Shown in pieces: positions 46,862 through 63,392 of a DNA stretch of 64,000 bases. The stretch spans positions 19,406 through 83,405 of IMG/VR virus record IMGVR_UViG_3300044617_002200. One strand, written 5' to 3'. Position numbers and translations under genes: made by a program. How positions within the stretch are numbered: the stretch's first letter is position 1; each line of letters begins with the position of its first letter. The DNA is from a virus. The notes below the pieces were generated by a model. That model ran no database searches, had not been told where the DNA came from, and was given only the letters and a program-made list of their open reading frames with translations.

Positions 46862-47144
46862 AATCAAAATATATATACACCCAAACTATTATGAATATAC
46901 ATTGCTATTTTAAATATGATAAAACTAAGATATATTAGTTCATAAGGTTTAGCGAGGTTAAATTAAATTAATAAAATAAAAATATCCTGAGATTGAAATT
47001 AGACCCTCCCGGCAACTCTTTTATAAAAGTCAAGTAAAAAATTTTCAAAAATAGGGGGGGGTTGGCATGATTCTTGCTCTAAAAAAAATACAATCGCACG
47101 AAAATAGTTGTTGTGTTTTTGGCGATCTGTGATACATTAAAACC

Positions 47145-47312
47145 ATGAACAACGAACCAACCAAAGAACAGAAAGACGAAATCGCGAAAGCTCTCATGCA
47201 ACGCGCCAGCATGGGCAAACGCTCCGGCTGGGGCTACGCAATCAAGTGGTTCGCCGCTTGGGAAAAGAATTTCTGGGAAAAAGAAAATCAAAAAAAATCC
47301 TTGCAATCCTAA
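47145..47312 (+). CDS. Small hypothetical protein (55 aa)
   Basis: MNNEPTKEQKDEIAKALMQRASMGKRSGWGYAIKWFAAWEKNFWEK...; ATG at promoter +1; below the ORF-track size cut-off. Confidence 0.65.
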   Translation: MNNEPTKEQKDEIAKALMQRASMGKRSGWGYAIKWFAAWEKNFWEKENQKKSLQS

Positions 47313-47335
47313 TCTGAATCTATAAAATAAACACC

Positions 47336-47563
47336 ATGCAAATCAAATCCACAATCGAGTTCAACGCCACCCGTTCCGTGTCTGCTAGCGGCAACACCGA
47401 ATGGTGGAAATTCACCATCACCGCGAACCGCTCGCTTTCCAAGGCGTCAGTCGAACACATCTGTCAAATCCACGGATGCTTCGGCCAGTCATTCAGCTAC
47501 AACGAAAACAAAGACAATGGCATCTTTACCTACTCTGGTGAAGCCACTTGCTACTGCGACTAA
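47336..47563 (+). CDS. Small hypothetical protein, paralog family A
   Basis: Near-identical to 48255-48482. Confidence 0.85.
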   Translation: MQIKSTIEFNATRSVSASGNTEWWKFTITANRSLSKASVEHICQIHGCFGQSFSYNENKDNGIFTYSGEATCYCD

Positions 47564-47574
47564 GGAATAAAAAT

Positions 47575-47784
47575 ATGTATTGTCCTCATAATGAACATGA
47601 TGAAGTCTTCGACAAAGTCGAAGGAGGTTGGTTCCATGTTAGCCACTATGAACTGAGCAAAAACAAATATCGCTATGTGTATGCAGGCGATACTTTTACA
47701 AGCCCCAAAACGGGTAAGAAGTGGCAATACTACCGGAAAGGAAATGAGCTTAAAGTTCGTCCTTTCAAGGAGTTAGCTAGTTAA
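47575..47784 (+). CDS. Small hypothetical protein, paralog family B
   Basis: MYCPHNEHD...GDTFTSPKTGKKWQYY; paralog of 50406-50648. Confidence 0.85.
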   Translation: MYCPHNEHDEVFDKVEGGWFHVSHYELSKNKYRYVYAGDTFTSPKTGKKWQYYRKGNELKVRPFKELAS

Positions 47785-48020
47785 ATAAAAAACTCCTCAT
47801 AAGTAACTCAAACACAATGAGTTGCGCAAGGCCGCCCCCCCGCCGGTTGCAAGTTGTTGAAAATAAAATAGTTATAATGAAAACACTAGCAGGAATCATG
47901 CCAGCCATACCGAGTATGGTTGCCATATCAAGTATGGTTGGCACGGGAGTTGCTTCAAAAAAAATGCAATCGCACGAAAAAATTTGTTGCATTCGAGACG
48001 ATCTGTGATAGATTAGAACC

Positions 48021-48215
48021 ATGAAAGACACCATAACACTCGACCACGGACACCACATCGCCATCCGCGTTGCTCTCATGCAACACATCCGCACTCAATT
48101 CGGGATTCGTCGCTTGCTCAATAATCGCGAGTCAATCACCGATGCAATCTCGGCCCTTCGTCTCGTCCGCAACTCGGACAAGCTGGAATCCACACCCTAC
48201 TCTTTCAAAAAATAA
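48021..48215 (+). CDS. Small hypothetical protein, family C
   Basis: Leaderless start; weak similarity to 49185-49382. Confidence 0.7.
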   Translation: MKDTITLDHGHHIAIRVALMQHIRTQFGIRRLLNNRESITDAISALRLVRNSDKLESTPYSFKK

Positions 48216-48254
48216 TTCTTGCAATCAATCAATCAACCCACTAATCTCTAAACA

Positions 48255-48482
48255 ATGAACATCAAATCCACAATCCAATTCGACGCCACTCGTTCCGTGT
48301 CCTCTTCGGGAAATACAGAATGGTGGAAATTCACCATCACCGCCAATCGTTCTTTGTCCAAGAACACCATCGAACACATCTGCCAGATTCATGGGTGCTT
48401 CGGTCAGTCTTTCAGCTACACCGATAGCAAAGTCGAAGGCGTGTTTACCTATTCGGGCGAAGCCACTTGCTACTGCGACTAA
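48255..48482 (+). CDS. Small hypothetical protein, paralog family A
   Basis: GNTEWWKFTITANRSLSK...GEATCYCD. Confidence 0.85.
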   Translation: MNIKSTIQFDATRSVSSSGNTEWWKFTITANRSLSKNTIEHICQIHGCFGQSFSYTDSKVEGVFTYSGEATCYCD

Positions 48483-48949
48483 TATGATCGCCACTATAAT
48501 CTTCGCATTACTAATGCTTTTACTCTTCAGATTGTTAGATTCTAACTACTAAAAACATGGATAACATCATAAAAACTATAGCCTTCTGCGTGTTTGGGTA
48601 TGCGATGGTAAGCCTCTTCTTTGAGCTTGCCGATTACATAGGCAGGCACGGGCTGTAGGTTGGCACGATTCTTGCTAGCAAAAATAACTCAAATAAGTTA
48701 CTATAAACCAATGACTTGCAGAGGGCCGCCCCCCGCGCAGTCGTAAGTCTTTGAGAATAAGTTGTTTATACTTGGCACGCTTCTTGCTGTGGTAGGTGGA
48801 AGTGTTAGCAGAAACCATGCCAACCATATCCGATATGGCAACCATACAGCGTATGGCATTACTACCTTGGCACGCTTCTTGCTTCAAAAAAATGCAATCA
48901 CACAAAAAAATTTGTTGCGTTCGCGGTGCTTCCGTGGTAGTCTATAAAC

Positions 48950-49180
48950 ATGAAAGTGAAAAACACAAAGACCACCGAACTGAAACCCTTCGTCCTCCGC
49001 GCTCAATTCGGGCTGATGCCAGTTGCCATGAAGCGGGTTTACTTGCCTTGCTACCGCAAGGCGACACGCAATCACCCGCAATGGGACGCCGCCGTTGCGG
49101 CCAGCATCTCCGCTCTTGCCGAAGACCTCGGCTTGTCAGCTTCCTTCCGTCCTGCTTTCTATCAAATCAACTCCCTCTAA
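48950..49180 (+). CDS. Small hypothetical protein
   Basis: ATG 6 nt after the TAGTCT -10 box. Confidence 0.7.
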   Translation: MKVKNTKTTELKPFVLRAQFGLMPVAMKRVYLPCYRKATRNHPQWDAAVAASISALAEDLGLSASFRPAFYQINSL

Positions 49181-49184
49181 TATA

Positions 49185-49382
49185 ATGAAATACAACCTCG
49201 ACTTCAACGAAAAAATTGCATTGCAAGTCTCTCTTATCCGTCAAGTTAGGGAGCTTAATTCTCTCCGCAATACTTGGGTTGTTAGCTCTCGCGCCAGCAT
49301 TCGCGCTGATCTTCGCCGGACAATCTCGATCCTTCGCAAAGTTCAGAAATCTGTAAATGTGCAACTCGAAACTGTTGAATAA
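49185..49382 (+). CDS. Small hypothetical protein, family C
   Basis: MKYNLDFNEKIALQVSLIRQVRE... Confidence 0.6.
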   Translation: MKYNLDFNEKIALQVSLIRQVRELNSLRNTWVVSSRASIRADLRRTISILRKVQKSVNVQLETVE

Positions 49383-49385
49383 CTT

Positions 49386-49556
49386 ATGAACATAACACAA
49401 AAAGAAAAACTGATGCGTAAACTTCATGAAAGCGCGCAATGTTTTGCAAACAAAGCACATAAAGCAGATAGAAATGGTAAAATGGTATCTTCTTTTATAA
49501 ATCTCAATCTTTATAATCTGTGCTATAATCTTAGAGACATAATCCGTTCAAAATAA
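49386..49556 (+). CDS. Small hypothetical protein, paralog family D
   Basis: MNITQKEKLMRKLHESAQCFANKAHKADRNG...FINLNLYNLCYNLRD; paralog of 51231-51386. Confidence 0.75.
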   Translation: MNITQKEKLMRKLHESAQCFANKAHKADRNGKMVSSFINLNLYNLCYNLRDIIRSK

Positions 49557-49569
49557 ACAATATAAAAAT

Positions 49570-49779
49570 ATGACAAAAATACTAAAAGCAATAGTGCCGG
49601 CAACAAAAAACCAAGGAAGTTGTTGCATTCTAGGAACTTGTAGTTTTTTTGAAACATACAAGCAAAATGTCCTGTGGCAATATAACAAGATGAGAGAACA
49701 TGATGGTTTTCCGCCTGTAATGAGGATGCCGTCTGGGACAAAATACGCATACAAACCATACTTGGGGGTAATTGTATAA
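49570..49779 (+). CDS. Small hypothetical protein
   Basis: 69 aa ORF (LWQYNKMREHDG). Confidence 0.55.
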   Translation: MTKILKAIVPATKNQGSCCILGTCSFFETYKQNVLWQYNKMREHDGFPPVMRMPSGTKYAYKPYLGVIV

Positions 49780-50063
49780 TGATTTTTGTAATTGCTTCTA
49801 TCGTAGGTGTTTACCTAATGAGTAAATGAACATAAACCCCTCTACAACAACAACTTGCAGAGGGCCGCCCCCCGCGCGATTACAAGTCATTAAAAATAAA
49901 CAACTTATAAAAAATCTGATAGCAGGATTCATGCCAGAGTTGTTGCCATACTAAGTATGTATTGCCATACTCGATATGGTTGGCACGAAAACTGCTTCAA
50001 AAAAAATGCAGCCGGATAAAAATAATTGTTGTGTTTCCGATCATCCCGTGATACCTTTTAACC

Positions 50064-50363
50064 ATGAACAACACGAACACCGAAGCCAGCAACGAAATCC
50101 TCGACTCCGAAATCTCCGCTCTCGCCGCTCATGCACCACAAGAGCAACCTTTCCCCAATGACGACGATTATAGCGACGATTCCTATGGGGTCACTCGCGA
50201 CGACGACACAACTGATGGCGACGATTGTTCGGAGTTCGACGGGGAACCCGAACCACGCGAAGATCACTTCCGCGACGATGTGGACGCTGACGCCGACACT
50301 CTCGCGAGTGCTGGCTACGGCACGGACGAGGACTACGGATACTTCGGGGGCGAAGATTACTAA
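50064..50363 (+). CDS. Highly acidic small protein
   Basis: 99 aa, D/E-rich, ends ASAGYGTDEDYGYFGGEDY; leaderless start. Confidence 0.75.
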   Translation: MNNTNTEASNEILDSEISALAAHAPQEQPFPNDDDYSDDSYGVTRDDDTTDGDDCSEFDGEPEPREDHFRDDVDADADTLASAGYGTDEDYGYFGGEDY

Positions 50364-50405
50364 TCAACTAACTCACTCAACATCAACCAATAACTAATAA
50401 AATAT

Positions 50406-50648
50406 ATGTATTCACCTCATACTGAACACGATCAAGTTTGGGACAAATGGAACAACGAATGGGCGTATGTCAGCCACTTCGAGCTTGAGAAACGCCAAAA
50501 TCGTTTCCGCTTTGTTTACCACGGCGACACTTTCACAAGTTCCAAGACTGGAAAGGTTTGGCAATACTACAAGAAGGGCGACGAACTTGGAGTCCGTCCT
50601 TACAAACCCGCCTCTTCAACCCCTTCTCTTGCAACTACTAATGCTTAA
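50406..50648 (+). CDS. Small hypothetical protein, paralog family B
   Basis: MYSPHTEHD...GDTFTSSKTGKVWQYY. Confidence 0.85.
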   Translation: MYSPHTEHDQVWDKWNNEWAYVSHFELEKRQNRFRFVYHGDTFTSSKTGKVWQYYKKGDELGVRPYKPASSTPSLATTNA

Positions 50649-51029
50649 TAATATGAAAACAAAACTAATCCATCTACTGTTTGGATCTCCCGAAATTGTT
50701 GGCACGCTTCTTGCTTGCAACATTGCATGGTTCACGCAATCAACTTGGCTGCAACGGCTTGAGCGCAATGGCGAACTCTACAGATACCTTATGAAGTAAA
50801 TCTTTAATATTCAATAACTTACGCAAGCGCGCCCCCCCGTCAGTTGCAAGTCATTGAAAACAAAACACTTGACCATCCAAATTGCTAGCAGGATTCATGC
50901 CAAGAATCAAGCCATACGCTATATGGCAAGCCATACTTGGTATGGTTGGCACACTTTTTGCTTCAAAAAAAATTCAACCGCATGAAAATAATCGTTGCTT
51001 TTCTGTGAGTCCCGTGATACCTTTACAGC

Positions 51030-51185
51030 ATGAAAGTTGAAATGATTGAACGCTACGCTGAAGCCTTCCGCAAGTTTGAAGCGGGTGAAATCACCCTCCA
51101 GCAATGGACTGATCTTTGTCTTTTGGTTCTTGAGGAAATTATGAACGAGCACAAGGAAATGTTTGTTCGGTTGAAAAACCGCTAA
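51030..51185 (+). CDS. Small hypothetical protein (51 aa)
   Basis: MKVEMIERYAEAFRKFEAGEITLQQWTDLC...; leaderless start. Confidence 0.7.
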   Translation: MKVEMIERYAEAFRKFEAGEITLQQWTDLCLLVLEEIMNEHKEMFVRLKNR

Positions 51186-51230
51186 AATTCTCTGGACACA
51201 TAACAAAAAACCAATTAAATTCTAACCACC

Positions 51231-51386
51231 ATGAAAAACAAACTGCTCCTCGCCCTTCATCAAAACGCTCAACGCTTCATCAACCGCTCTCATCTCGCTG
51301 ATCGCCGTGGGAACCAAGTCTGCGCGTTTATCAACTTTCACCTCTACAATCTTTGCTACAATCTCCGCAATGCAATCCGCAACTAA
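51231..51386 (+). CDS. Small hypothetical protein, paralog family D
   Basis: MKNKLLLALHQNAQRFINRSHLADRRG...FINFHLYNLCYNLRN. Confidence 0.75.
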   Translation: MKNKLLLALHQNAQRFINRSHLADRRGNQVCAFINFHLYNLCYNLRNAIRN

Positions 51387-51393
51387 TAAAAAA

Positions 51394-51573
51394 ATGAAAA
51401 TATCTTTTGCACATCTTTTGACGGCTCTTTTTATCGGATTAAAACTCACGGGATACATCAACTGGTCGTGGGTTTGGGTTCTGTCTCCCATCTGGATCAC
51501 ATTGTTGTTTGCGCTTACTTTTATCGCCATAGGTGCGACGCTTGGCGTAATCATAAAAAAAAGGGAAAAATAG
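51394..51573 (+). CDS. Small phage membrane protein
   Basis: LFIGLKLTGYINWSWVWVLSPIWI motif, common in phage membrane proteins. Confidence 0.75.
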   Translation: MKISFAHLLTALFIGLKLTGYINWSWVWVLSPIWITLLFALTFIAIGATLGVIIKKREK

Positions 51574-51617
51574 TTCTTTACCCCCACTCTTAAAATTAGT
51601 AAAATAAAACTCACACC

Positions 51618-52112
51618 ATGAAGCTAACCACCAAAACCAAAGACCCGTTGAACTACATCGAAGCAAACTTGATCCTTCACAAGATCGGCAATCAGCTTCC
51701 ATACTTTTCCCTCACGGGGCGCATTGTTAAGCACGGACACGAGACTACAAGCGGAGCAATCCACAAAGAAATTCTTGAGGCATTCCCGCAACTCGAAGAT
51801 GCCGCCGCACTTCACCTTTCCGATATGAACGGCAAACCGATGCACTCTTTCGAGAATGGAAAGTATTGGGCTGGGTTTACAAAGTTGAACGAATGCAGTA
51901 GCAAAAACCTTGCAAGCCTTTGGAGAATTAGTCAAAATCGTGCGGCGGGTCTTACTCGTGACGCGCTCATGGCTCAACTCTGGCAGGATGGCGACAGCGA
52001 CACTTTGCCGGAAACTCTTCTCAAAGACTTTCACGATAGACAGTTGCGCCGTTGGAAGCAGGAAGCTGATAATGTCATCAAGAAGTATAATCTGGAAATT
52101 GTTCTTTCTTAA
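51618..52112 (+). CDS. Hypothetical protein
   Basis: 164 aa; PYFSLTG...SGAIHKEIL..FP.L...LHLSD.NG.PMH..ENG.YW; own promoter. Confidence 0.75.
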   Translation: MKLTTKTKDPLNYIEANLILHKIGNQLPYFSLTGRIVKHGHETTSGAIHKEILEAFPQLEDAAALHLSDMNGKPMHSFENGKYWAGFTKLNECSSKNLASLWRISQNRAAGLTRDALMAQLWQDGDSDTLPETLLKDFHDRQLRRWKQEADNVIKKYNLEIVLS

Positions 52113-52165
52113 TGAGTTCAATCGTCTATCAAATTATAGTAAGCAAAAAACAAAAACAAAACACC

Positions 52166-52429
52166 ATGAAAAAACTAATACAAAACATCAAACGCAAGGT
52201 CATTCTTATCTCATTCTGTATCAATTTGATGCTATGCTTTGCTTCATGTGCATACTTTAGCGCGGCAGAAACTAAAATGCGAGAAGTTCGTGATATTCAA
52301 CGAGATGCAAAAGAAGTTCTTGACACGCCTGATCTTACTGGTTGGAGCATTGATGAATTAGAGGATGCTGTCAATAAAGACATTAAAACTTTAGAAAAGG
52401 CGTATAAACAGAGAGGGGGAAAAATATGA
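52166..52429 (+). CDS. Hypothetical membrane-anchored protein
   Basis: MKKLIQ... with one TM segment. Confidence 0.55.
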   Translation: MKKLIQNIKRKVILISFCINLMLCFASCAYFSAAETKMREVRDIQRDAKEVLDTPDLTGWSIDELEDAVNKDIKTLEKAYKQRGGKI

Positions 52430-52726
52430 ATACTCGCTAACGCAAAGCTCTCGTAATCAATGGGTTGCGAGAGCGCGCCCCCCCCGCCCGACGCAACTCA
52501 TTGAAATACAATAACTTATGCAAAAGTTAAAGTTTTGAAATTAAAAAACTTATATCGCAAACCGCTTTCGTTCAATTATTTGCGGCTTTCAAGATTCTTA
52601 TTTGTCTATTTAGTATTTTACTATTTCACTATTTGTCGCTCGATTGGCACGGAACTTGCTTGCAAAAAAATAATTTTTTTGTAAAAAAACTTGTCCTCAC
52701 GAAAAAAAATGAGATAATAAAAAACG

Positions 52727-53401
52727 ATGAAACTCCTATCTGCTAACAACACCAAAATCAAAAAAGGCGAGAAACTTGGATGGCGCACTCTCGGGTTGTC
52801 GCTTGCTCCTGCTAATCTGTCCGGCAAACAACTTTGCCCTCATCGCTCTGCTGGCTGTGAAGCGGCTTGCCTCAATACTTCTGGAATGGGGGCTTTCTCG
52901 AATGTTCAAGAGGCACGAATTAAAAAAGCAAAACTGCTGATTGAAAACCGCGCTGTTTTTCTTGCTCAACTCGAAAAAGAGCTTGTCAATCTAAACAAAC
53001 GCGCTGGCAAAGGAAATCAAACCGCCGTGCGTCTTAATGTGCTTTCCGATCTTCCTTGGCATAATTTGATTGACATGGAAAAATTTCCAAACCTCAAATT
53101 TTATGATTACACGCCAAACCCTGCGCGAATGATTCAATTCCTGCGCGGGGAACTTCCTGCAAATTATCACTTGACATTTTCTCGCAAGGAAAGCAATCAA
53201 GCGCAAGTTCAACTAATCTCCAGCATGGGCGGCAATGTAGCCGTTGTTTTTGACAATCTCCCGGAAACCTATCTCGGCAAGCCTGTTATAGATGGAGATG
53301 AAACCGATTTGCGTTTTCTTGACCCTAAAAATGTAGTAATTGGCTTAAAAGCAAAGGGTAAAGCCAAAAAAGATTATTCTGGATTTGTTGTCAAAATCTG
53401 A
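52727..53401 (+). CDS. GP88-like Cys-cluster protein (radical-SAM-related)
   Basis: CPHRSAGCEAACL, VRLNVLSD, FYDYT, NYHLTFS, GDETDLRFLD, GLKAKG. Confidence 0.7.
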   Translation: MKLLSANNTKIKKGEKLGWRTLGLSLAPANLSGKQLCPHRSAGCEAACLNTSGMGAFSNVQEARIKKAKLLIENRAVFLAQLEKELVNLNKRAGKGNQTAVRLNVLSDLPWHNLIDMEKFPNLKFYDYTPNPARMIQFLRGELPANYHLTFSRKESNQAQVQLISSMGGNVAVVFDNLPETYLGKPVIDGDETDLRFLDPKNVVIGLKAKGKAKKDYSGFVVKI

Positions 53402-53765
53402 TACGATATGGCATGGAAACATGGATAACGCTTTTATGTATAGCATTGGTTTTCTTTGCTTTAATCAAATCAAAAAAATAATGCGATAAGAAAAAAATAG
53501 TTGGCACGATTCTTGCTTGTGTCTCGCGTTTAAGTAAACCACTAAACGCCAACGACTTGCGGCGGGCCGCCTCCCGCGCAAAAGCAAGTTCTTGAAAGAG
53601 AATGACTTATGTAAAATGCATTAGCAAGAACCATGCCAAGATTCAAACCATATCTAGTATGGCAAGCCATATTGAGTATGGTTGGCACGATACCTGCTAT
53701 AAAAAAAATTCAAAAATAAAAAAATAATTGTTGCGCTTCAACAAGGGCTGTGATAAATTTTAATC

Positions 53766-53957
53766 ATGCTGAACACAATGACTATTGAACTCGATGATTT
53801 CATCACTCATTCTCATTCAGACGAATTTTCTTCCGAATGGGAGGAACAACAAAAAATTCTGAAAGCCTGTGCCTATGAGGCATGGCTTGACGAACAAGAA
53901 AGAAAATACTGGGAAAATCTTTCGCTAAAAAGTGAAGGTTTCTCTTGCACACACTAA
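53766..53957 (+). CDS. Small acidic hypothetical protein
   Basis: Leaderless start after TAAATT. Confidence 0.65.
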   Translation: MLNTMTIELDDFITHSHSDEFSSEWEEQQKILKACAYEAWLDEQERKYWENLSLKSEGFSCTH

Positions 53958-53981
53958 AACAAAACACTAATATCACCACTT

Positions 53982-54527
53982 ATGAAAAAAGCCAACATCA
54001 TCATCAGCACATACGGAAACGGAATCGCGGTCGGACTCCAAGGAACTAAGGATCAGATCGAACAATCTTTCAACCGCTTTTTTAATTGGGGCGCGGCGGC
54101 TCCAAATATAACATTCATGCGCTCAAACGAGGATTGCGAAACCAATATCGGTGACATGGGCGATTCTTACTTGCATGAAATTTTCGATGGTTTTTGCTAC
54201 TTCCTTTCTACTGAACAAGATATGATCAAAGCTCTTGCAAGTGAATATCTTTTTAACTGGCAAGATACTTCTATATCAAAACAATACAAAGGCGTTCGCA
54301 ATAACAAAAAAATTGCTGGATTAAAATTCCGAGAAGATGCCCAAAATGCTGCTCGCGAAGAGTTTAACAGCTACACTAAAGAAAACTTTATGCTTTACAA
54401 TAAATCAGAGTCACCCCTTTTCAAAGTCTCTGATGGAGGCGCGCCTTCATATGACTCATCATCAATGACTTTTGGAGAAGTCGCAAGAACTTATGGATAC
54501 AAAAGCCGATTAGCTCCAGCAGTATAA
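53982..54527 (+). CDS. Hypothetical protein
   Basis: 181 aa ORF. Confidence 0.7.
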   Translation: MKKANIIISTYGNGIAVGLQGTKDQIEQSFNRFFNWGAAAPNITFMRSNEDCETNIGDMGDSYLHEIFDGFCYFLSTEQDMIKALASEYLFNWQDTSISKQYKGVRNNKKIAGLKFREDAQNAAREEFNSYTKENFMLYNKSESPLFKVSDGGAPSYDSSSMTFGEVARTYGYKSRLAPAV

Positions 54528-54898
54528 GCTGGCACGATAATTGCTAGGCTGGCGAGTGCGTAGCGCGGACCAGCCTGGCACGCTTTTTGCTTACAGTTTT
54601 TAAAGCAAATGATTGAATATCAATGACTTGCAAAAGTTGGGCCACCCCCGCGCACGCAACTCTTTGAAAGCAAACAAGTTATGACTTGAAATCACAAAAT
54701 GTGATTTTCACAATACTTTGGCGTTCATCTTGTTATACAACTGGTCGAAATTTGCGACCAGTTATACAAAACACATATTTGCTTATTATTAGATTCTTAT
54801 TTGGTCACGAATACGTTCCTATTTGATTTTAAATCTTTTAGCAATTCTAAAAACAATTGACATTTTATAAAAATTAATTTATATTAAACATATATTTG

Positions 54899-55486: not shown

Positions 55487-55591
55487 TGATCTTTGAAAAT
55501 TTTAATATATGGTCGTCGGCTGAAGTGCAAGCGTCTGATTGGATCACCAGAGGGCACAATAATGCCGAGTTAACACGGCCACCTTTTAGTA

Positions 55592-55663: not shown

Positions 55664-55668
55664 AAAAG

Positions 55669-55742
55669 TAACTCGTGGTGTAACCGCAAGCATCCTGCGC
55701 ATGAACGCGGGGGTGAGGGTTAAAGTCCCTCCGAGTTATCCA
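55669..55742 (+). tRNA. tRNA-like RNA with non-canonical anticodon loop
   Basis: TAACTCG/CGAGTTA acceptor stem plus T-CCA; T arm gaggg-TTAAAGT-ccctc; loop CATGAA (6 nt) or 8 nt. Confidence 0.55.
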
Positions 55743-56010
55743 ATTTTAGCTTGCTAGGGGACAAGAGGCTCCATGCCTCGTCCTGTAAGTGCGTAGCGCG
55801 ACAAAGGCTTACCCTAGCGTGGCTAGTTTTTTTGGTAAATAGAGTAGTAATACCTATTCCGGTGCCTCGAAAGCGGGGCGGTGCTTAATAAGGTGTTTCG
55901 AGAATATACACAGCCGCCTACCATTCATTTTCATAGAAACTAAAAAATAGTTAAAAGAATACTTGATGTATAGTGTAATTTATAGGTATCGCAATTTGCG
56001 ATACCAAAAC

Positions 56011-56086
56011 TGCGATGGGCTAGGCCAGGTGGTCTGATGTGTCTCATAAGCACATAAACTGGGTTCGAGTCCCAGCGTCGCTACCA
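56011..56086 (+). tRNA. tRNA-Met/Ile2 (CAT)
   Basis: Loop CTCATAA, GGTTCGAGTCC, CCA; 1:72 mismatch. Confidence 0.8.
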
Positions 56087-56169
56087 ATTTGGGGTAAACA
56101 TTAAACCGAGCCGCGACCCAAATACAGGGTGTTTATTCCAGAAGCGTCGCGGGTAAACGCTTCTACTTT

Positions 56170-56241
56170 TGAAGTATAGCTCAATGGTAGAGCGGGGCGC
56201 TGTTAACGCCTAGGTTGTAGGTTCGAGTCCTACTACTTCAG
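56170..56241 (+). tRNA. tRNA-Asn(GTT)
   Basis: Cloverleaf, loop CTGTTAA. Confidence 0.9.
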
Positions 56242-56250
56242 TATTTATAT

Positions 56251-56323
56251 GTGGCTCGTGGTGTAGCGGCTAGCATTACTCACTGTGACTGAGTCGGGAC
56301 GGGTTCAAATCCCGTCGAGCCAA
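56251..56323 (+). tRNA. tRNA-His(GTG)
   Basis: actca-CTGTGAC-tgagt, GGTTCAAATCC, G at -1. Confidence 0.85.
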
Positions 56324-56326
56324 TAC

Positions 56327-56400
56327 GCGGAATTAGTTTAATGGTAGAACTGGACTCTTCCAAAGTCAGGACGAGGGTTCGATTCCCTCATTCCGCACCA
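56327..56400 (+). tRNA. tRNA-Gly(TCC)
   Basis: GCGGAAT/ATTCCGC acceptor stem, loop CTTCCAA, CCA. Confidence 0.9.
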
Positions 56401-56401
56401 T

Positions 56402-56474
56402 ACCGAGATAGCATAATTGGTAGTGCAACAGAATTTGGATCTGTCGGTTGATCGTTCGAGTCGATCTCTCGGTG
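56402..56474 (+). tRNA. tRNA-Gln(TTG)
   Basis: acaga-ATTTGGA-tctgt, GTTCGAG T-loop. Confidence 0.8.
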
Positions 56475-56486
56475 CTTTTAATTTTT

Positions 56487-56585
56487 GCCGGTGTAGCTCA
56501 GCGGTAGAGCAGCAACCCACTCATGGTGAAGGACCTAATGCCGTGGGATAAAAGCAAGCCGTTGGTTCGAATCCAACCACTGGTT
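56487..56585 (+). ncRNA. tRNA-like RNA with expanded anticodon domain
   Basis: Canonical acceptor stem, D arm (TAGCTCAGCGGTAGAGC) and T arm (GGTTCGAATCC), but about 25 extra nt in the anticodon region. Confidence 0.7.
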
Positions 56586-56866
56586 CTCTGTAAATCTTTA
56601 TTAATAAGAGAGATGCGAATGCAAGCCTGCCCGCCGCGCGCAAGTCTTTGAAAGAGAAGATCTTATCAAAATGGCTTGACAAAAAAATAAAAATTAATTA
56701 AAATTCGGCATGAAGATTAAAACTTTTTATCTTATTATTAGCACCCCGAAGGTTCAGAAAACCATGCCCAAGCCTTGTCGTCCTATTTCAAAAAAAGGTT
56801 ACTCTCGAAAAATAAAACACAAAAATCTTCTTGCATTGGACTAAAAAATCAGCTATCTTAATAAAG

Positions 56867-57556
56867 ATGATCACCACTAACATCACCACGGAAAATATCG
56901 TTGCACCATTTATTCTCGCTCCAGTCGAGAGTTTTTTTGCGTCTATCACCGATTCTGAACGCACTTTTCAAACAGACTACTGGAAGGAAGTTTCTCCAGA
57001 AAATGATTCCGAATGTTTTCGGAGATTTTTGTTTGCGTATTGTAGCGTTCATACTACTTGGGAATCGAATATCAAAGCATACAATCTTATCAAGAATTGG
57101 TGGGAGTGGATCAATCAATGGGATGAATTAGAGAACCGCATCAAACAAAGCGGGGCGGGTCTTTATAGAAATCGTGTTCGTTTCATCAAAGATTTTTGTG
57201 CCAAGTTTTGGGCGAACCCTTGCTTTTATACCAAGCAGACAGAAAACGAATCTTGGACTGATTTTCGCAATCGCATTGAGAAAGCAATTCTCGGTCTTGG
57301 TATGGCAAAATCCAGCTTTGCAATCGAAATGATGTATCCTACAATCGGTCAAGTTTTTTGTGCCGATACTCATATGTTTCAACTCTATGGTTGTAATCAA
57401 ACCAAAGATTCTAAAAAATACCAAGACATCGAGAAACATTGGGTTCGTATGTCTTTCGAGTATGAAATCTCTCCATACATTGCTCGTTGCATTTTCTGGG
57501 ACAGAAAACAAAAGCAAGAAAATTCTCGCTACTGGTCGTATGTTTTGGAAAAATAA
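56867..57556 (+). CDS. HhH-type DNA glycosylase-like protein
   Basis: ILGLGMAKSSF HhH-like motif and CADTHM; GAGLYRNRVRFI. Confidence 0.55.
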   Translation: MITTNITTENIVAPFILAPVESFFASITDSERTFQTDYWKEVSPENDSECFRRFLFAYCSVHTTWESNIKAYNLIKNWWEWINQWDELENRIKQSGAGLYRNRVRFIKDFCAKFWANPCFYTKQTENESWTDFRNRIEKAILGLGMAKSSFAIEMMYPTIGQVFCADTHMFQLYGCNQTKDSKKYQDIEKHWVRMSFEYEISPYIARCIFWDRKQKQENSRYWSYVLEK

Positions 57557-57594
57557 TCCTTGAATTTAAAATCAAAAAAATATATTCTTTCAAT

Positions 57595-57789
57595 ATGATC
57601 ATCACACGCAAATCACCATTCAGCGGTAAAATTAACAAGATGGATATCAATGTCACAGCGGGTCAAATTGTCCGTTGGGAAATGGGAGAGTTGATTCAAA
57701 ATGCCATGCCGAATTTAACCCCATCAGAACGCGAGTTCATTAAAACTGGGATAACTGATGAAGAATGGCAAGCAGCTTGTGGTGAATAA
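57595..57789 (+). CDS. Small conserved-looking phage protein
   Basis: MIITRKSPFSGK...LIQNAMPNLTPSEREFIKTGIT..EW. Confidence 0.7.
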   Translation: MIITRKSPFSGKINKMDINVTAGQIVRWEMGELIQNAMPNLTPSEREFIKTGITDEEWQAACGE

Positions 57790-58201
57790 TATAAACAAAC
57801 AAAACAAACAAACAAAAAACATATGAAAATAATCGAAGGCGCAATCTATAAATATAATGATGAACTCGTCCGCTTGCGTAAGCGAGTCGGAATCATGGCT
57901 GTCTTGTCTCGTCGCAAGAAAGCAGGGTTTATTGGTGTTACTAGCAAGCTTGAAAAGGTCAATAAGAAACAGGTAGCTAAATTTCTAGGACACACATGAA
58001 ATAAATACTTGAAACTCAAGGCCTTGCGAAAGGCCGCCCCCCCCGCGCGCCGCAAGTCCTTATAAATAAAGGGTTTATAAAATAACCTCTAGCAAGAATC
58101 ATGCCAACTTCTGAAGTCGAAAAATACGGCTTCAAACTTTAATAAAAAAAATCAAAAAAAAATCTTGCCGTGCGTTCAAATCATAGTATGATGAAATCTC
58201 A

Positions 58202-58993
58202 ATGAAAGCACTAAACCTAACACTACATTGCGGCGGCCACTCCGTCGAATCCACCGAAGTTCAACAGGTCGCCACTCCTATGGCTACCGACTCATGGCAT
58301 CCGATTCCTCACTTTTCGCTCATCGAGCGTCTTCGTGAGATTGTTTCTGACGCTGGAATGACAATCACGCAAGAAGCTCATGCCCTTGCTCGTAATGGAC
58401 TCCGCTATTTTGGGCTTTTCCAAGTGGCGGGAATCCCTAACTTCTCTCAAGAAGACAACATTGGAACTGTAATCGGGCTTCGCAATTCCCATGACAAGTC
58501 TTTTCCAGCCGGAATCAACGCGGGGTCTGCTCCGTTCGTTTGTGATAATCTTGCGTTCCATAACGAAATCAAGATTGCTCGTCGTCACACCAAGTTCATC
58601 ATGCGCGATTTACCGACGCTTTTAGCAGGAGCATTTGGTAAGCTGACTACAACTTGGGGCAACAATGCGGCACGAATCGAAGCCTATCAATCGCGTCAGC
58701 TTAATAACCCAGAAGCTCACGATATTCTTGCTAGAGCATATCGTTGCGGTGCAGTAAGTAAGACTCATCTTGCGGATGTGCTTGACCAATGGCATAATCC
58801 AGAACATGAGGAATGGAAACCAGAGCGTAATCTGTGGGGTCTGCATAATGCCTTCACTAATGTCATGCGTGGCAATGTGTTAGCACTACCAAAGCGTAGC
58901 GATGCCCTACATGGTCTGCTCGACCCGCTGGCGGGAGTAAAGTTCGCCAGAGCAGAAGAAGTTGGCGATGAGGCACTTGCCCTCCCTGCTTAA
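58202..58993 (+). CDS. DUF932-family protein
   Basis: PIPH, GLRNSHDKS, FVCDNLAF, RRHT, LWGLHNAFT. Confidence 0.75.
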   Translation: MKALNLTLHCGGHSVESTEVQQVATPMATDSWHPIPHFSLIERLREIVSDAGMTITQEAHALARNGLRYFGLFQVAGIPNFSQEDNIGTVIGLRNSHDKSFPAGINAGSAPFVCDNLAFHNEIKIARRHTKFIMRDLPTLLAGAFGKLTTTWGNNAARIEAYQSRQLNNPEAHDILARAYRCGAVSKTHLADVLDQWHNPEHEEWKPERNLWGLHNAFTNVMRGNVLALPKRSDALHGLLDPLAGVKFARAEEVGDEALALPA

Positions 58994-59008
58994 CCTATAA
59001 GCAATTAA

Positions 59009-59043
59009 GTTTAAGGCTCCAAATCGGAGCCTTAAATTTTTTT
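59009..59043 (+). terminator. Rho-independent terminator
   Basis: tttaaggctcc-aaatc-ggagccttaaa followed by a T-run. Confidence 0.8.
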
Positions 59044-59190
59044 GCGACTAGGTTCTTTTACAAGTCATTTAACAGTAATGAGTTGCGTGCGAGCGCCCCC
59101 CGGCCCGCCGCAAGTCTTTGCTAATCAAGGCGTTATAGCTGATTTTTTTTATTTGACACCGAGTAGAAATAACAATACTTTTATTTCGAT

Positions 59191-59535
59191 ATGTCACCAC
59201 AAGAAATCCAATCAATCGCAGACTTGACCGCTAAATTTTTAGGCTTGACAATTAGACCAAAAGCTATAATCAAAGAAACCAGCAGGGGCTATGCTTGGAC
59301 TGATAAAGGTTGGTTTACAATGCCACAATGGGCGATTGATCATAGCGAAGAATGTGCGATGTATATAATCATCCATGAAATTTGTCATTTTTTGAATGGA
59401 GGGTTAGATCATGGCACGGAATTTGCTTCCGTAGAAGATCGCGCTCTTGAATTTTGGAATTTGAAAATAGAAAGAACAAAAAAAAATGTATATGCAAAGA
59501 AAATAATTTCCAAACGAGGGGTTTTTTCTATTTGA
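59191..59535 (+). CDS. SprT/M48-like HEXXH metalloprotease
   Basis: YIIIHEICH...HGTEF. Confidence 0.7.
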   Translation: MSPQEIQSIADLTAKFLGLTIRPKAIIKETSRGYAWTDKGWFTMPQWAIDHSEECAMYIIIHEICHFLNGGLDHGTEFASVEDRALEFWNLKIERTKKNVYAKKIISKRGVFSI

Positions 59536-59569
59536 CTTCTACCAAAAATAAAATTAAATTTATATTCCT

Positions 59570-59752
59570 ATGCCAAAACTAAAATCCTACAAAATTATTA
59601 GCGATACTGACGGAAACGATTTTTTCAAAGTTTCTGCAAGAGACGAGTGCGATGCCGCGATGGAGGGCTTGGAGCAACTTGGATGGTTTGTTTCTGAATC
59701 TAACTCCGAAGACGAAGAAGAAGACGAAAACCAATATCAATTTAATTTCTAA
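59570..59752 (+). CDS. Small acidic hypothetical protein
   Basis: 60 aa with own TTGACT promoter. Confidence 0.6.
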   Translation: MPKLKSYKIISDTDGNDFFKVSARDECDAAMEGLEQLGWFVSESNSEDEEEDENQYQFNF

Positions 59753-59795
59753 AAAAACATTGACTCAATCATAAAAAAATACTATTCTAAAAAAG

Positions 59796-60611
59796 ATGAA
59801 AACACTAACTGCCTTTATCAAAACCGACGACTCACTTACCATCGTTATCGACAACACCCCGAAAACGATGTCTGTTAATCACCCCTCTTTCGACGATGCA
59901 ATCTCTGCTCTTGAGAATGGCGACATCGACTTGCTCGACTCTCTTTTCGATGTGAAAAACAAAATCCAAAAAGAGTTTGTTTCTACAAGTTCCCGATTTG
60001 GTGGGGTTGAAATTTGTGATGATGGAACAATCCTCTATAATGGAGAAGTTATCCATAATTACATTGTTGACAAAATCTTCGAGTTCATGGATTGCCGACT
60101 GCCTTTCCAACCTCTTGTCAACTTCTTGGAGAAACTGATGGAGAACCCTTCTAAACGCGCAGTTGATGAACTTTACAAGTTCTTGGAACACAAGCATCTT
60201 CCTATCTGCGAAGATGGTGATTTCCTTGCCTACAAGAGTGTTCGCGAAGATTATATGGATCACCACTCTGGAAAGTTCAGTAATCATGTGGGGTCAGTTC
60301 TTGCGATGCCTCGCAATGCAGTCTGCGACGATGCTGATGTTGGTTGCTCTTATGGTTTCCATGCTGGTAGCTATGAATACGCTTCGACATTCGGCGGAAG
60401 TGGTTCTCGCCTTGTGATTGTCAAGATCAATCCTGCTGATGTTGTTAGTGTTCCGCGTGATTGTAATTGTCAGAAACTCCGCACTTCTCGATATGAAGTT
60501 ATGAAGGATTTCGAGGAAATCTACAATAAGCCTCTGAATACAGAGTTTAAGTCGAAAAACTCTCATAATCAACGAGATAGTAAGGGCAGGTTTGTTGCGA
60601 AAGCAAAATAG
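59796..60611 (+). CDS. rIIB-like protein
   Basis: NPSKRAVDELYKFL, DGDFLAYKSV, MPRNAV.DD....CSYGFHAG, VKINPADVVSVP.D....KLRT.RYEV. Confidence 0.85.
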   Translation: MKTLTAFIKTDDSLTIVIDNTPKTMSVNHPSFDDAISALENGDIDLLDSLFDVKNKIQKEFVSTSSRFGGVEICDDGTILYNGEVIHNYIVDKIFEFMDCRLPFQPLVNFLEKLMENPSKRAVDELYKFLEHKHLPICEDGDFLAYKSVREDYMDHHSGKFSNHVGSVLAMPRNAVCDDADVGCSYGFHAGSYEYASTFGGSGSRLVIVKINPADVVSVPRDCNCQKLRTSRYEVMKDFEEIYNKPLNTEFKSKNSHNQRDSKGRFVAKAK

Positions 60612-60657
60612 TTTCAATACCGAGTAAGTATTGAAAGTTGGTTAGTGGTGGGTCAGC

Positions 60658-60697
60658 GGCGGCAAGACTTGTGGTGGGTCTTGCCGCCTTTTTTTTG
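60658..60697 (+). terminator. Rho-independent terminator
   Basis: ggcggcaagac...gtcttgccgcc followed by T8. Confidence 0.85.
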
Positions 60698-60900
60698 TGC
60701 CACAGCTTTTGTTGTAAATTACTCCAAGTCAAAGAGTTGCGGCTGCCGCCCCCCCCGCGCTGTGCAAGTTGTTGATAATCATGCTTTTATACTAAAACCT
60801 GTAAGCAAGAATCGTGCCATAAAAAAATAAATAAAAATTAAAAAAAAATGCTTGCGCGGTGTTCAAATTATAGTAATATGAGATTTCACCAATACCACAC

Positions 60901-63165
60901 ATGATTATAGCTCAATCCAAAGCAAATGTTGTCACTAACGGAATCCAAGGTGCTGTTTCTTTCGGCATCAAAAACGATGGTCTTGCTCACATTTTTAATG
61001 TGCTACGCAACCAACTTTATTCCGATAAAATTCTTGCCATTCTCCGCGAGTATTCTTGCAATGCCGTGGATGCCCATGTTGAAAACGGATGCGGTTCTCG
61101 ACCTATTGAGGTCACGCTTCCGAATCGTCTTGAACTCTCTCTCAAAATCCGTGACTTTGGTGCTGGATTGAGTGAAGAAGATATTCAAGAAATCTATGCG
61201 TTTTATGGAGAGTCCACTAAACGCCAAAGTAATTCTCTAATCGGTCAACTCGGTCTTGGTAGTAAATCCGCGTTTTCTTATGGTGACAATTTTGTAATCA
61301 ATAGTTTTAACAACGGACTAAAAACAACTTACAACGCATATATCGACCCTTCCCAAATCGGTCAAATTGCTAAACTTGCGAGTGTTAGTTCTAAAGAGGA
61401 AAGCGGAGTCGAGATTGTTATTCCTGTTAAACCTTCTGATGTTGAAACTTTTGCTGAAAAAGCCAAGCAGGTATTCAAATACTTTGCAGTAAAGCCTATC
61501 ATTAAGGGTGTTGCTCCTATTGACTTTGGAAATAGAGCATCTTCCTTGGAGGGTCAAAATTGGCGCATCGTTAGTAATGATAGAAGTGTTTATGGTAGCT
61601 CGCAAAAGTCCGTAGCTATAATGGGTAATATCGGTTATGTTATTAACCCTTCTTCATTGAAACTCGATGAGAATGTTTCTGATGATTCTATCTGCCAGAA
61701 ACTTGTGTCTAACTCTAATCTTGATTTTGAAGTTAAGTTCAATATCGGTGATTTGGACATTGCCGCATCCCGCGAAGGATTGCAATATACAGATAGGACT
61801 ATCAATGCTATCAAATCTAAATTCGTAGGAATCCACAACGAAATCGTTGATAAGGTTTCTAAAGAAATGGATACAGCACATAGCGAGTTTGCTTTCAAAA
61901 AAATGATTGGCAATATGTCTGATATGTCCAGTCCTTACTACTTTGTTAGTCGTGCTGTTAAGAATTTGAAGTGGAAAAACAAGGTTGTTTCTTCCAATAT
62001 GTTTACCTTTCCTTCTCCGAGTCGTGCTATTCGATATACTCCGAGGCGTGGATATGTGGGTGGTAATTATACTACAAAAGGCGGAGATTTAATTACTGAT
62101 ATGGATAATAAAAATATCCATCTCAACGACAAAGAAGTTTTTATTGAAAATACCCGTAAACTTCGTTCTTGTTTAGTTAATTATGCTTACAACTTTCTAA
62201 AGGATGGTAAATCTGTTTGTATTCTTACTTTCGATAATAAAACTCAACGCGACAATTATCTGAAAGCGAATGGGTTGGTTGATAGTGACTTGGTTGACAT
62301 TTCTACTCTCCAAAAAATCATCCTGCCTCGCAATACTCGCAGTCGTGTGAATACTAATGTTTCGACTGCTGTTCGTAGCAAGCACACTAAAAATGTTTTT
62401 CAGCTTAAAACTCAAAACATTCCTTCTTACACTTCTGTTCGTTCGGACTATTGGGAAGAAGTAAATGTCGATCTGGATGACAAAAACCTTAAATCCGAAT
62501 ACGCTTGGGTTGACATCGAAAGATTTGAAGCGGTTCTTAACAAAACCCGCGACATTGTAATCGCCCCTTCTTCCCTTGTTGCTCTTAATCGCCACATGGA
62601 AACAATTAAAAAGCAATATCCTTCTTTTGTTATTCCTAAAATCATTGGCGTTAAGTTCGGAAAAACAGATGGAGATTCTATTCGTAAAGCAACTCAAAAC
62701 CTAAAAGACTTTGTGACCGATCAACTTAAAAGTTTGTATGGCAAAGATAATCTTTCGGATAAGTTTTGGGCGGGAGAAATGAGTAGCAAGTTTTCTTCTG
62801 ACAATTATGTTCTATTCCGTTGCGTGTTTCCTTTGCTAAAAGAAACCATTGCTCCTAACGCTTTTAAGATTTTGAACGAGCTTAAAGATGCCTCTACCCC
62901 CTCTCAAAAAGAGACTCATCTTCTTACTCCTTCACGGGATATAAAGCAAATCTTGAAAATCAAAGATTCTGAAATTTACAAAAATCAATCAGACAATCTG
63001 AATAAACTTTCTGACAAATTAAACAAAGTTGAGAAAGCCCTTCCATTGCTGAAAGTTGTAGATCAATATGACTTCAATCAGTATCGTGATAAAAAAGATA
63101 TTGCAAAAAATGCTTCTATTGATTATGTTCAGACAAGAGACTTTATGCTATGTGGTGTAGCGTAA
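60901..63165 (+). CDS. rIIA-like protein (GHKL/Hsp90-type ATPase N-terminus)
   Basis: LYSDKILAILREYSCNAVDAH, IRDFGAGLS, YGESTK, IGQLGLGSKSAFSY, DIAASREGL. Confidence 0.88.
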   Translation: MIIAQSKANVVTNGIQGAVSFGIKNDGLAHIFNVLRNQLYSDKILAILREYSCNAVDAHVENGCGSRPIEVTLPNRLELSLKIRDFGAGLSEEDIQEIYAFYGESTKRQSNSLIGQLGLGSKSAFSYGDNFVINSFNNGLKTTYNAYIDPSQIGQIAKLASVSSKEESGVEIVIPVKPSDVETFAEKAKQVFKYFAVKPIIKGVAPIDFGNRASSLEGQNWRIVSNDRSVYGSSQKSVAIMGNIGYVINPSSLKLDENVSDDSICQKLVSNSNLDFEVKFNIGDLDIAASREGLQYTDRTINAIKSKFVGIHNEIVDKVSKEMDTAHSEFAFKKMIGNMSDMSSPYYFVSRAVKNLKWKNKVVSSNMFTFPSPSRAIRYTPRRGYVGGNYTTKGGDLITDMDNKNIHLNDKEVFIENTRKLRSCLVNYAYNFLKDGKSVCILTFDNKTQRDNYLKANGLVDSDLVDISTLQKIILPRNTRSRVNTNVSTAVRSKHTKNVFQLKTQNIPSYTSVRSDYWEEVNVDLDDKNLKSEYAWVDIERFEAVLNKTRDIVIAPSSLVALNRHMETIKKQYPSFVIPKIIGVKFGKTDGDSIRKATQNLKDFVTDQLKSLYGKDNLSDKFWAGEMSSKFSSDNYVLFRCVFPLLKETIAPNAFKILNELKDASTPSQKETHLLTPSRDIKQILKIKDSEIYKNQSDNLNKLSDKLNKVEKALPLLKVVDQYDFNQYRDKKDIAKNASIDYVQTRDFMLCGVA

Positions 63166-63193
63166 TCGTGGAGTGTTAGTCATGGTGAAGACT

Positions 63194-63222
63194 GGGGGCG
63201 GGAAACCGCCCCCTTTCTTTTT
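63194..63222 (+). terminator. Rho-independent terminator
   Basis: ggggcgg-gaaa-ccgcccc hairpin followed by a T-rich tail. Confidence 0.85.
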
Positions 63223-63392
63223 GCCTTGGGGAAGACTGACGCAAAGTCCTCAATATAAAAGAGTTGCGACTGGCCGGGGGGGCGCGGCTCCGCAACTCAT
63301 TGGTATTCAATGCTTTATACAAACTTTAAAACAGTGATCTAGAAAAGGGTTGACATCGGCTTCAGGATGTATTATTATAGGTTGTATTATAA

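Follow-up and report, generated by a model that had tools for sequence, protein, structure and literature searches.

Recurrent cassettes with sigma54-type boxes and a double palindrome border small-gene modules in the putative early region of an uncultured freshwater phage

The DNA described here is the last 64 kb (the window) of an 83,405-base IMG/VR virus contig (IMGVR_UViG_3300044617_002200, denoted G000) from an uncultured phage, and the subject is a multi-part intergenic cassette with sigma54-type boxes that recurs between the gene modules of one arm of the genome. The contig is 55% complete according to CheckV, and 80–98% of the words sampled from the stretch are present in three DNA runs with lake-water or freshwater-metagenome labels, two of which are possibly its source. 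Minus-strand genes of approximately 30% GC extend up to 46,867, and plus-strand genes of 40–45% GC run from 47,060 to the contig end. Related contigs are denoted G001–G003 and G004, and L numbers denote viral or metagenome loci. A GC-richer early region (40–45% versus 28–34% elsewhere) is present in each of three related contigs, with the spans taken as 46001–64000 in the window, 1–10000 in G001, and 5001–25000 in G002. The modules between the cassettes (47145–63165, plus strand) hold about 30 mostly small open reading frames (ORFs), including paralogue pairs, together with a GP88-family protein, a DUF932 gene, rIIB (59796–60611), rIIA (60901–63165, with its ATG at 60901), and 8–9 tRNA genes. 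We infer that this small-gene, rIIA/rIIB-bearing arm (47.0–63.4 kb) is early because it adjoins rIIA and rIIB, consists of small ORFs, and carries the promoter type described below.

The full cassette follows the order F box (in some copies), dyad, R box, two CCATAY-N3-RTATGG palindromes, F box, A-tract, extended −10 element, and ATG, where F and R are forward and reverse sigma54-type boxes and the dyad is a 75-bp element. The first-pass annotation had viewed the intergenic DNA as a stereotyped multi-part kit bounding gene modules and had named five places at which it was most complete; the layout and its near-fixed spacing bear this out, and the order is complete at all five. On the plus strand, the first of these (47798–48020) comprises a dyad at 47798–47875, an R box at 47888–47903, palindromes at 47905–47919 and 47923–47937, an F box at 47939–47954, A-tracts, an extended −10 element, and an ATG at 48021. 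The second (48661–48949) opens with an F box at 48661–48676 and continues with a dyad at 48692–48768, an extra F box at 48773–48788, an R box at 48807–48822, palindromes at 48824–48838 and 48842–48856, an F box at 48868–48883, an A-tract, and an extended −10 element before the ATG at 48950. The third (49831–50063) has a dyad at 49831–49907, an R box at 49921–49936, one degenerate and one intact palindrome (the latter at 49965–49979), an F box at 49981–49996, an A-tract, and an extended −10 element before the ATG at 50064. The fourth (50700–51029) begins with an F box at 50700–50715, inside the ORF 50654–50799, followed by a dyad at 50796–50872, an R box at 50887–50902, palindromes at 50912–50926 and 50931–50945, an F box at 50947–50962, an A-tract, and an extended −10 element, with the ATG at 51030. 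The fifth (53502–53765) contains an F box at 53502–53517, a dyad at 53533–53610, an R box at 53623–53638, palindromes at 53648–53662 and 53667–53681, an F box at 53683–53698, A-tracts, and an extended −10 element, with the ATG at 53766.

The spacing of the parts is tightly held. In six of the seven dyad–R pairs, the R box begins 68–70 nt past the dyad's left inner arm; the seventh differs by the insertion of the extra F box. In 6/6 cassettes, the promoter-proximal F box has its GG 66–67 nt upstream of the extended −10 TG, and in six cassettes exactly 6 nt separate TGnTAnnnT from the downstream ATG. Seven of the 14 plus-strand boxes are located 81–82 nt before a module ATG and have an A-rich start region. 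In the five complete cassettes, approximately 128–164 nt separate the dyad centre from the start predicted for the promoter-proximal F box, which lies downstream of it. A host sigma70-family promoter with phased A-tracts, a TTG, and an extended −10 element opens each module of one to five small genes. The "sigma70 promoter" proposed earlier is corrected here to an extended −10 promoter. Its placement predicts an mRNA start at the ATG or a few bases before it, and a Shine-Dalgarno sequence was found at none of the 34 gene starts inspected.

The remaining copies, all on the plus strand, hold fewer parts. The array opens at the divergent border with the minus-strand virion genes (47054–47144), where a G8 run is followed by an F box at 47063–47078, an A-tract, an extended −10 element at 47128–47138, and the ATG at 47145, a start shared by G001. 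A partial cassette (52442–52726) has a dyad at 52442–52520, an F box at 52645–52660, several A-tracts, and a TGnGATAAT promoter before the ATG at 52727. As first described, later copies are reduced: palindromes are absent after 53681, and the dyad stands alone or with an R box. Tandem F boxes at 54530 and 54576 open a unit (54530–54990) with a dyad at 54605–54683, a TTGACA-17-TATATT promoter at 54857–54885, tRNA-Lys at 54899–54973, and an R box at 54975–54990. This tRNA gene has its own promoter, and the R box adjoins it directly on the 3′ side, so that the gene lies between dyad and R box. A degenerate dyad is followed by a TTGACA-17-TAAAAT promoter (56590–56704). The unit before the DUF932 gene (58001–58201) consists of a dyad at 58001–58078, an R box at 58091–58106, A-tracts, and a promoter at 58165–58192, with the ATG at 58202. 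A dyad alone occupies 59059–59136, and an F-type box at 59412–59427 lies within the ORF 59191–59535. The unit after rIIB (60658–60900) starts with a canonical terminator at 60658–60696 and continues with a dyad at 60713–60790, an R box at 60804–60819, A-tracts, and the promoter that precedes the rIIA ATG. The unit after rIIA (63194–63378) contains a canonical terminator at 63194–63221, an inverted dyad at 63243–63319 with its G-rich core on the plus strand, and a TTGACA-17-TATTAT promoter before tRNA-Glu.

The boxes are highly enriched in this arm. The strict pattern TGGCAYN5TTGCW has 15–16 matches in the window versus 0.12 expected (maximum of one in 100 shuffles), all confined to 47063–60819. 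The relaxed pattern GGCAY-N5-YTGCW identifies 22 boxes across the entire 83.4-kb contig, and these too fall within those 14 kb, with 14 on the plus strand and eight on the minus strand. The gap is fixed: N5 occurs in the 22 boxes, and nine other gaps tried give six in total. The GG and GC elements are exactly 10 bp apart in 22/22 contig boxes, other spacings being at noise level. A logo of 40 boxes from three phages (G000 and two relatives) reads TTGGCACGATTCTTGCT. Positions left free by the search are also conserved, namely the preceding T (39/40), the G after GGCAY (32/40), and a final T rather than A (40/40). The sigma54 consensus compiled by Barrios et al. in 1999 is reportedly TGGCACG-N4-TTGCW, and the box logo agrees with this consensus beyond what the search pattern demanded. 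One base is orientation-specific, as 13 of the 14 forward boxes read GGCAC and seven of the eight reverse boxes read GGCAT.

The dyad is present in 12 copies. Each consists of two RYAAGT-N15-ACTTRY units, which are 27 bp long and palindromic, flanking a GC-rich core. In L024, whose rIIA is 46% identical, the element likewise comprises two 27-bp GTAAGT-N15-ACTTAC units, 50 nt apart, around a 23-bp GC core. Alignment of 17 copies revealed conserved symmetric blocks (AA, T, CAA, and GACTTRC) that are mirrored on the other side. The stretches between these blocks are non-complementary, with pairing in 3 to 11 of the 17 copies; one central position pairs in 11/17, without compensation. Copies are only 60–80% alike, yet their spacing is constant to 1–3 nt, also across genomes. 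The cores are alike within a genome and different between genomes (a C-run here, GGGCCCAGGGCCC in G001, and GCGCGCCCCGCC in L024), and this within-genome likeness fits exchange between dyad copies.

A role of the dyad at the RNA level is poorly supported. Folding z-scores of single copies are mostly 0 to −2 (on the plus strand, 4/12 are at −3 or below), RNAalifold predicted no consensus structure, and Rfam at E ≤ 1 returned only tRNAs plus two chance-level matches; an RNA hairpin was rejected on these grounds. Canonical terminators, each a GC hairpin with a T-run, follow rIIB and rIIA on the 5′ side of dyads, at 60658 and 63194, and the order terminator–dyad–promoter recurs in L024. Because separate canonical terminators precede these two dyads and the dyad has no U-tract, the dyad was rejected as the terminator. 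It looks like a protein site on duplex DNA rather than a terminator or a convincing RNA hairpin. An integration host factor (IHF) site, as first suggested, was not supported: the exact consensus WATCAANNNNTTR is not enriched (11 matches in the window versus 10.2 expected), four of the 11 matches lie in dyads, and the dyad arms share only CAA-N4-TTR with the consensus.

The CCATAY-N3-RTATGG palindromes have nine matches at 47905–53681, versus 0.01 expected. The palindrome–box junction TATGG(T)TGGCA is shared by three phages, and the palindrome counts per contig are nine here, two in G001, one in G003, and zero in G002. Two known element types were compared with the cassette. Inverted F...R ends surround dyads at 48661/48822, 50700/50902, and 53502/53638, and a miniature inverted-repeat transposable element (MITE) was rejected because the flanks of these three F–dyad–R units carry no target-site duplication. 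An integron attC or site-specific recombination core was set aside since the spacer is too long and the R′/R″ motif was not seen.

The distribution of the parts was surveyed in 80 viral loci found by an rIIA profile. The seven closest rIIA loci (45–49% identity, among the 80) carry 5–9 dyads each. TTGCT boxes number 0–1 in these loci, except for four in L025 (G002). They mark instead the clade carrying early gene M, which comprises seven contigs (this one, G001, G002, and L304–L307) with at least four boxes each. Modules in this clade have one to four boxes at constant offsets from both the double palindrome and the promoter, some of them adjoined by a CCATAY-N3-RTATGG operator. Genes H, I, K, M, and N are restricted to the clade's box-bearing contigs, which applies to 10/10 loci in the case of M. 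A second conserved box class, TTGGCACGATTCTTGAAT, which lacks the −12 GC, is present in L304–L307, L024, L026, L027, and L030. It occurs there as tandem copies ahead of promoters and, following dyads, at the R position. The variant box lies +67 nt from the dyad arm in 8/8 cases in the box-poor loci L024, L026, L027, and L030. Order and spacing are conserved in relatives for parts of the cassette: the dyad-to-R distance is 67–70 nt in G000, L024, L026, L027, and L030, and the F-to-promoter distance is 66–67 nt in G001. The ordered layout supports the view of a kit, but its parts do not form one unit: dyads extend through the whole family, boxes are specific to one clade, and palindromes are even less common. 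Judged from these comparisons, the kit is layered, with an old dyad and a box at a fixed offset, followed by clade-specific multiplication of boxes and then by the operators. In the complete relative G004 (178,478 bases, with terminal repeats), all nine strict dyad sites lie within 20.1–32.3 kb, away from the genome end, which does not fit the earlier notion of first-injected DNA. Relatives are otherwise sparse: megablast against cultured phages found none, tblastn with rIIA gave at most approximately 32% identity, and neither a single-protein rIIA scan of viral contigs nor a scan with the double-palindrome DNA pattern returned a match. The palindrome-plus-box pattern matched 15 stretches, roughly the chance level, including the true relative L017.

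A wider scan for a box followed by ACTTRC 30–37 nt later identified 61 viral stretches with a box 13–18 nt from a 27-bp unit. Of these, 39 have at least three boxes and one has 22. Box density is 0.50 per kb in the 61 stretches (293 in 590,799 bases) versus 0.012 per kb in the 80 rIIA loci (18 in 1,477,119 bases), selection by the pattern guaranteeing only about one box per locus. The −12 C is kept in 296/337 motifs, at least 61 of these CT motifs being forced by the search pattern, and the AA type occurs in 1/337. In tblastn, early genes in common with this phage were found in three of the 61 loci (L264, L278, and L296), not counting L261, which is part of the G002 contig itself. A long, near-perfect hairpin with the 27-bp unit at its centre stands between convergent boxes in L297 and L251. 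A metagenome scan with palindrome, box, and A-run gave no match; a second one yielded at least 116 stretches, nearly all single among the matches listed, and tblastx detected no similarity to the early region among them, L211 and L166 being notable solely for their layout. That one asymmetric 16-bp motif recurs in phages of 29–55% GC without common early genes points to a conserved host factor as the binder, with the sigma54-RNA polymerase holoenzyme as the obvious candidate. Many unrelated uncultured phages may place docking sites for sigma54-RNA polymerase 13–18 nt from a 27-bp unit at early module borders, parked polymerases acting as boundary elements or switches; we regard this generalization as possible but somewhat unlikely. 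Two contigs carry even denser arrays: L259 (1–1500) combines its 22 boxes with dense CATAGC/GCTATG repeats, and L166 (1088–1180) has overlapping convergent boxes with a common TTGCTATAGCAA centre.

Six genome contigs carry the family rIIA and are titled as three Bacteroidota, one Proteobacteria, and two unclassified metagenome-assembled genomes (MAGs), binning being weak evidence. Together with the missing Shine-Dalgarno sequences, these titles suggest a possible Bacteroidota host; an Atlas look-up of a glycosyltransferase yielded no usable taxon. TTGACA-17-TATAAT promoters, of the kind that precede tRNAs here, are unusual in Bacteroidota. The sigma54 DNA-binding domain (PF04552, rpoN) was detected in 5/5 MAGs with binned family contigs, with the same caveat on binning. 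Strict boxes number 1–5 per 2.4–4.4 Mb in the MAGs (0–3 in the reversed control), versus 15–16 in 14 kb of the window, and the 27-bp unit and the palindrome are both rare in the five MAGs outside phage-like contigs. No PF00158 activator was found in G000–G003, and the sole PF00158-like match, in G004, is a RuvB-like AAA+ protein; with no rpoN in G000–G004 either, a phage-encoded sigma54 or activator was set aside as a candidate.

Gene order in the arm is strongly shuffled. The arrangement of homologous early genes differs among this phage, G001, and G002, and paralogues with 81% DNA identity sit in different modules. The DUF932 gene lies before rIIB here and between rIIB and rIIA in G002, each block being dyad-bounded. 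Junctions were scored wherever two neighbouring genes each had a homologue in the compared genome. With a loose rule, the broken junctions against G001 comprise 8/8 with a dyad and 0/4 without (p=0.002); with a stricter rule that drops paralogue duplicates, they comprise 7/7 and 1/3 (p=0.067). Against G002, the counts are 9/11 and 4/7 (p=0.27). Breaks at cassettes are only a tendency. Three pairs of paralogous mini-genes with 58–83% protein identity were also seen in different modules (47336–47563/48255–48482, 47575–47784/50406–50648, and 49386–49556/51231–51386).

This organization resembles the promoter-early stem-loop (PeSL) elements of T4-type phages, which the available parts of the sources describe as small repeated cassettes with a strong sigma70-type early promoter and for which recombination between copies has been proposed (PMC2839356, PMC4122927). 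Six cassettes here have such a promoter, and, as those sources report for PeSLs, the cassettes are interspersed with small dispensable ORFs across a hyperplastic region whose gene content and order vary between relatives. Two differences stand out. The PeSL stem-loop is described as a terminator, whereas the dyad is a separate, weakly folding element placed after canonical terminators and without a U-tract; sigma54-type boxes or operators do not figure in the available PeSL descriptions. This phage shares rIIA and rIIB with T4-type phages, but its virion genes are not recognizably T4-like.

Taken together, we tentatively read the arm as a hyperplastic early-gene region of a large freshwater phage, PeSL-like in build with a richer boundary cassette, in which the boxes dock sigma54-RNA polymerase and the modules are bounded; we consider this plausible, if not quite probable. 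The double palindrome would be bound, as duplex DNA, by a protein. The boxes would dock the host sigma54-RNA polymerase, which would be promoter-bound and silent unless an ATPase activator acts. Parked at a distance of 13–17 nt and oriented toward the palindrome, on one flank or on both, the polymerase could, together with the palindrome-bound protein, close the modules to read-through and antisense transcription. The promoter-proximal F box might provide a second, conditional start approximately 55 nt upstream of the ATG, which would place the dyad in an enhancer position relative to it. Since the same cassette of about 200 bp is repeated, recombination between copies could reshuffle the modules, as proposed for PeSLs.

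Several observations weigh against this reading. The nearest relatives carry the variant TGGCACG-N4-YTGAA at the same position, with the −12 GC lost, as at the R position of L024, L026, L027, and L030. In L305–L307, the TTGAA variant (8–10 copies) exceeds TTGCT (5–6 copies), versus 23/23 TTGCT motifs in the window. A sigma54 site should not tolerate the TTGAA change well. None of the eight R boxes has a co-oriented gene downstream, and two boxes are intragenic, in the ORFs 50654–50799 and 59191–59535; the former, at 50700–50715, is retained in the homologous ORF of G002. The palindromes adjoin the −24 element with a gap of 0–1 nt and are rare in the five candidate-host-phylum MAGs searched, so that a phage-specific binder could read the whole composite. 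Neither rpoN nor an enhancer-binding protein was found in this 55%-complete contig, in G001–G003, or in the complete G004, and the presence of sigma54 in the phage's own host is presumed from the MAGs. No RNA run containing the stretch was listed. The link between breakpoints and cassettes is not statistically significant by the stricter count against G001 or against G002, and the insulator role of the cassettes is a candidate function only.

The boxes may instead be productive, enhancer-dependent sigma54 promoters, with the dyad serving as enhancer for an activator of host or phage origin and the palindromes binding an auxiliary protein or repressor. Modules would then fire, or be silenced by antisense RNAs from the R boxes, only when the activator is active. 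The perfect −24/−12 elements with fixed spacing, the seven F boxes at a constant distance before module ATGs with their A-rich start regions, and the upstream position of the dyad centre in the five complete cassettes are consistent with this explanation, and in the metagenome contig L166 a box and an A-run stand directly before a Shine-Dalgarno sequence and ATG. The available part of a report on phage YuA also describes a sigma54-like promoter (PMC10914365). However, no activator or rpoN gene was found in the phage contigs searched, and the dyad stays upstream of promoters in relatives that have only 0–1 TTGCT boxes. Furthermore, the R boxes and the F boxes before dyads face the dyad and not genes, the palindromes overlap the expected polymerase footprint, and the TTGAA variants fit poorly. 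We consider productive promoters unlikely.

Decidedly less likely is that a phage-encoded or other non-sigma54 protein binds the boxes, with TTGGCAYG-N4-YTG as the true target and a convergent or partial likeness to sigma54 sites. This would account for the conserved TTGAA class, which is common in L304–L307 and occupies the R position in box-poor relatives, for the palindrome–box junction kept in three phages, and for the restriction of genes H, I, K, M, and N to box-bearing contigs. The co-occurrence of the boxes with gene M falls within a single clade, however, and the asymmetric motif fits every conserved sigma54 position. Among the 61 other stretches, the −12 C is largely kept (at least 61 of the CT motifs being forced by the search), the AA type is nearly absent, and so few loci share early genes that a common phage binder is not evident.

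The cassettes could also be largely selfish or neutral repeats that recombination or a MITE-like route has spread, without a regulatory role beyond the promoter. Homogenized cores that differ between genomes, F...R pairs resembling 16-bp inverted ends around the dyad, and the shuffled gene order agree with such an origin, but the absence of target-site duplications at the three F–dyad–R units, the spacing that stays constant despite divergence between copies and genomes, and the restriction of the elements to one genome region render it highly improbable. Least probable of all is that the flanking boxes drive transcription of the dyad into a hairpin-forming small RNA, or that the dyad acts as an RNA stabilizer or terminator: predicted sigma54 starts at both outer edges of the dyad and the long hairpins of L297 and L251 would suit it, but complementarity is limited to the conserved blocks, and the Rfam, RNAalifold, folding, and terminator results oppose it.

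The nearest known counterparts differ from the array in several ways. The repetitive extragenic palindromic (REP) elements and bacterial interspersed mosaic elements (BIMEs) of enterobacteria are repeated, palindromic, GC-rich extragenic sequences at transcription-unit ends that are thought to bind nucleoid or topology proteins. The dyad shares these general features but has no sequence relation to them; it is phage-borne, confined to one region, promoter-tied, and not enriched in the IHF consensus. Bacterial sigma54 −24/−12 sites have the identical bipartite sequence and spacing, in both orientations and also within genes, but 22 boxes in 14 kb of phage DNA compare with 1–5 per whole bacterial genome, and here the boxes keep a fixed distance to a double palindrome and have a TTGAA variant in relatives. 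According to the available part of a study in Escherichia coli, the sigma54 holoenzyme is bound inactive at many non-promoter sites, often away from genes, so that many bound sites are not known promoters (PMC4591121). The Pseudomonas phage YuA is described, in the accessible portion of its report, as depending on host sigma54 for part of its transcription through a single promoter region; that account mentions neither coupling to a dyad nor a series of boxes along module borders (PMC10914365). The accessible portion of a Pectobacterium phage report mentions a putative sigma54-like protein on a weak HHpred match only (PMC7693777), and a preprint, as far as its available text goes, addresses insulation encoded in bacterial sigma54 promoters (10.1101/086108). 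In the literature searched, with most subscription journals outside its scope, no paper reporting arrays of sigma54 boxes in phage early regions turned up, and sigma54 is nearly absent from phage biology there, with only single YuA promoters found. A cassette that unites a standard promoter with a conserved double palindrome and numerous perfect sigma54 boxes thus appears not to have been described for phages. Should the boxes bind silent holoenzyme, the tens of sites per genome copy could drain sigma54 from the host regulon, and the question would be how phages exploit a bound but silent polymerase, with insulation, timing, antisense shut-off, and titration as candidates; this would be a mode of phage–host transcription control without described precedent. 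If they bind something else, a widespread and unrecognized phage DNA-binding system would be implied. The cassettes may also serve as compact natural boundary elements and as a handle on the shuffling of phage accessory genes.

The gene products of both arms are poorly matched by known families. No Pfam family was found for any of the ten small early proteins examined, and no PDB relative was found for the gene M protein. The minus-strand virion-side proteins are highly divergent, a PHROG match being obtained for one of the ten large ORFs scanned, the terminase large subunit. At 56487–56585, Rfam reports a 99-nt tRNA match of 45 bits that ARAGORN does not call, maybe owing to an insertion or intron. 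The G8 run at 47054–47061 lies directly before the first early box, and a similar run occupies this position in G001 (L017, about 10010–10020). The G003 contig (L116, 1–9) opens with C9, and such G/C runs may break assemblies. On the minus strand, many virion-side genes (5305–46298) have a GTGTAATAT-like motif 10–20 nt before the ATG, which is a candidate late promoter.

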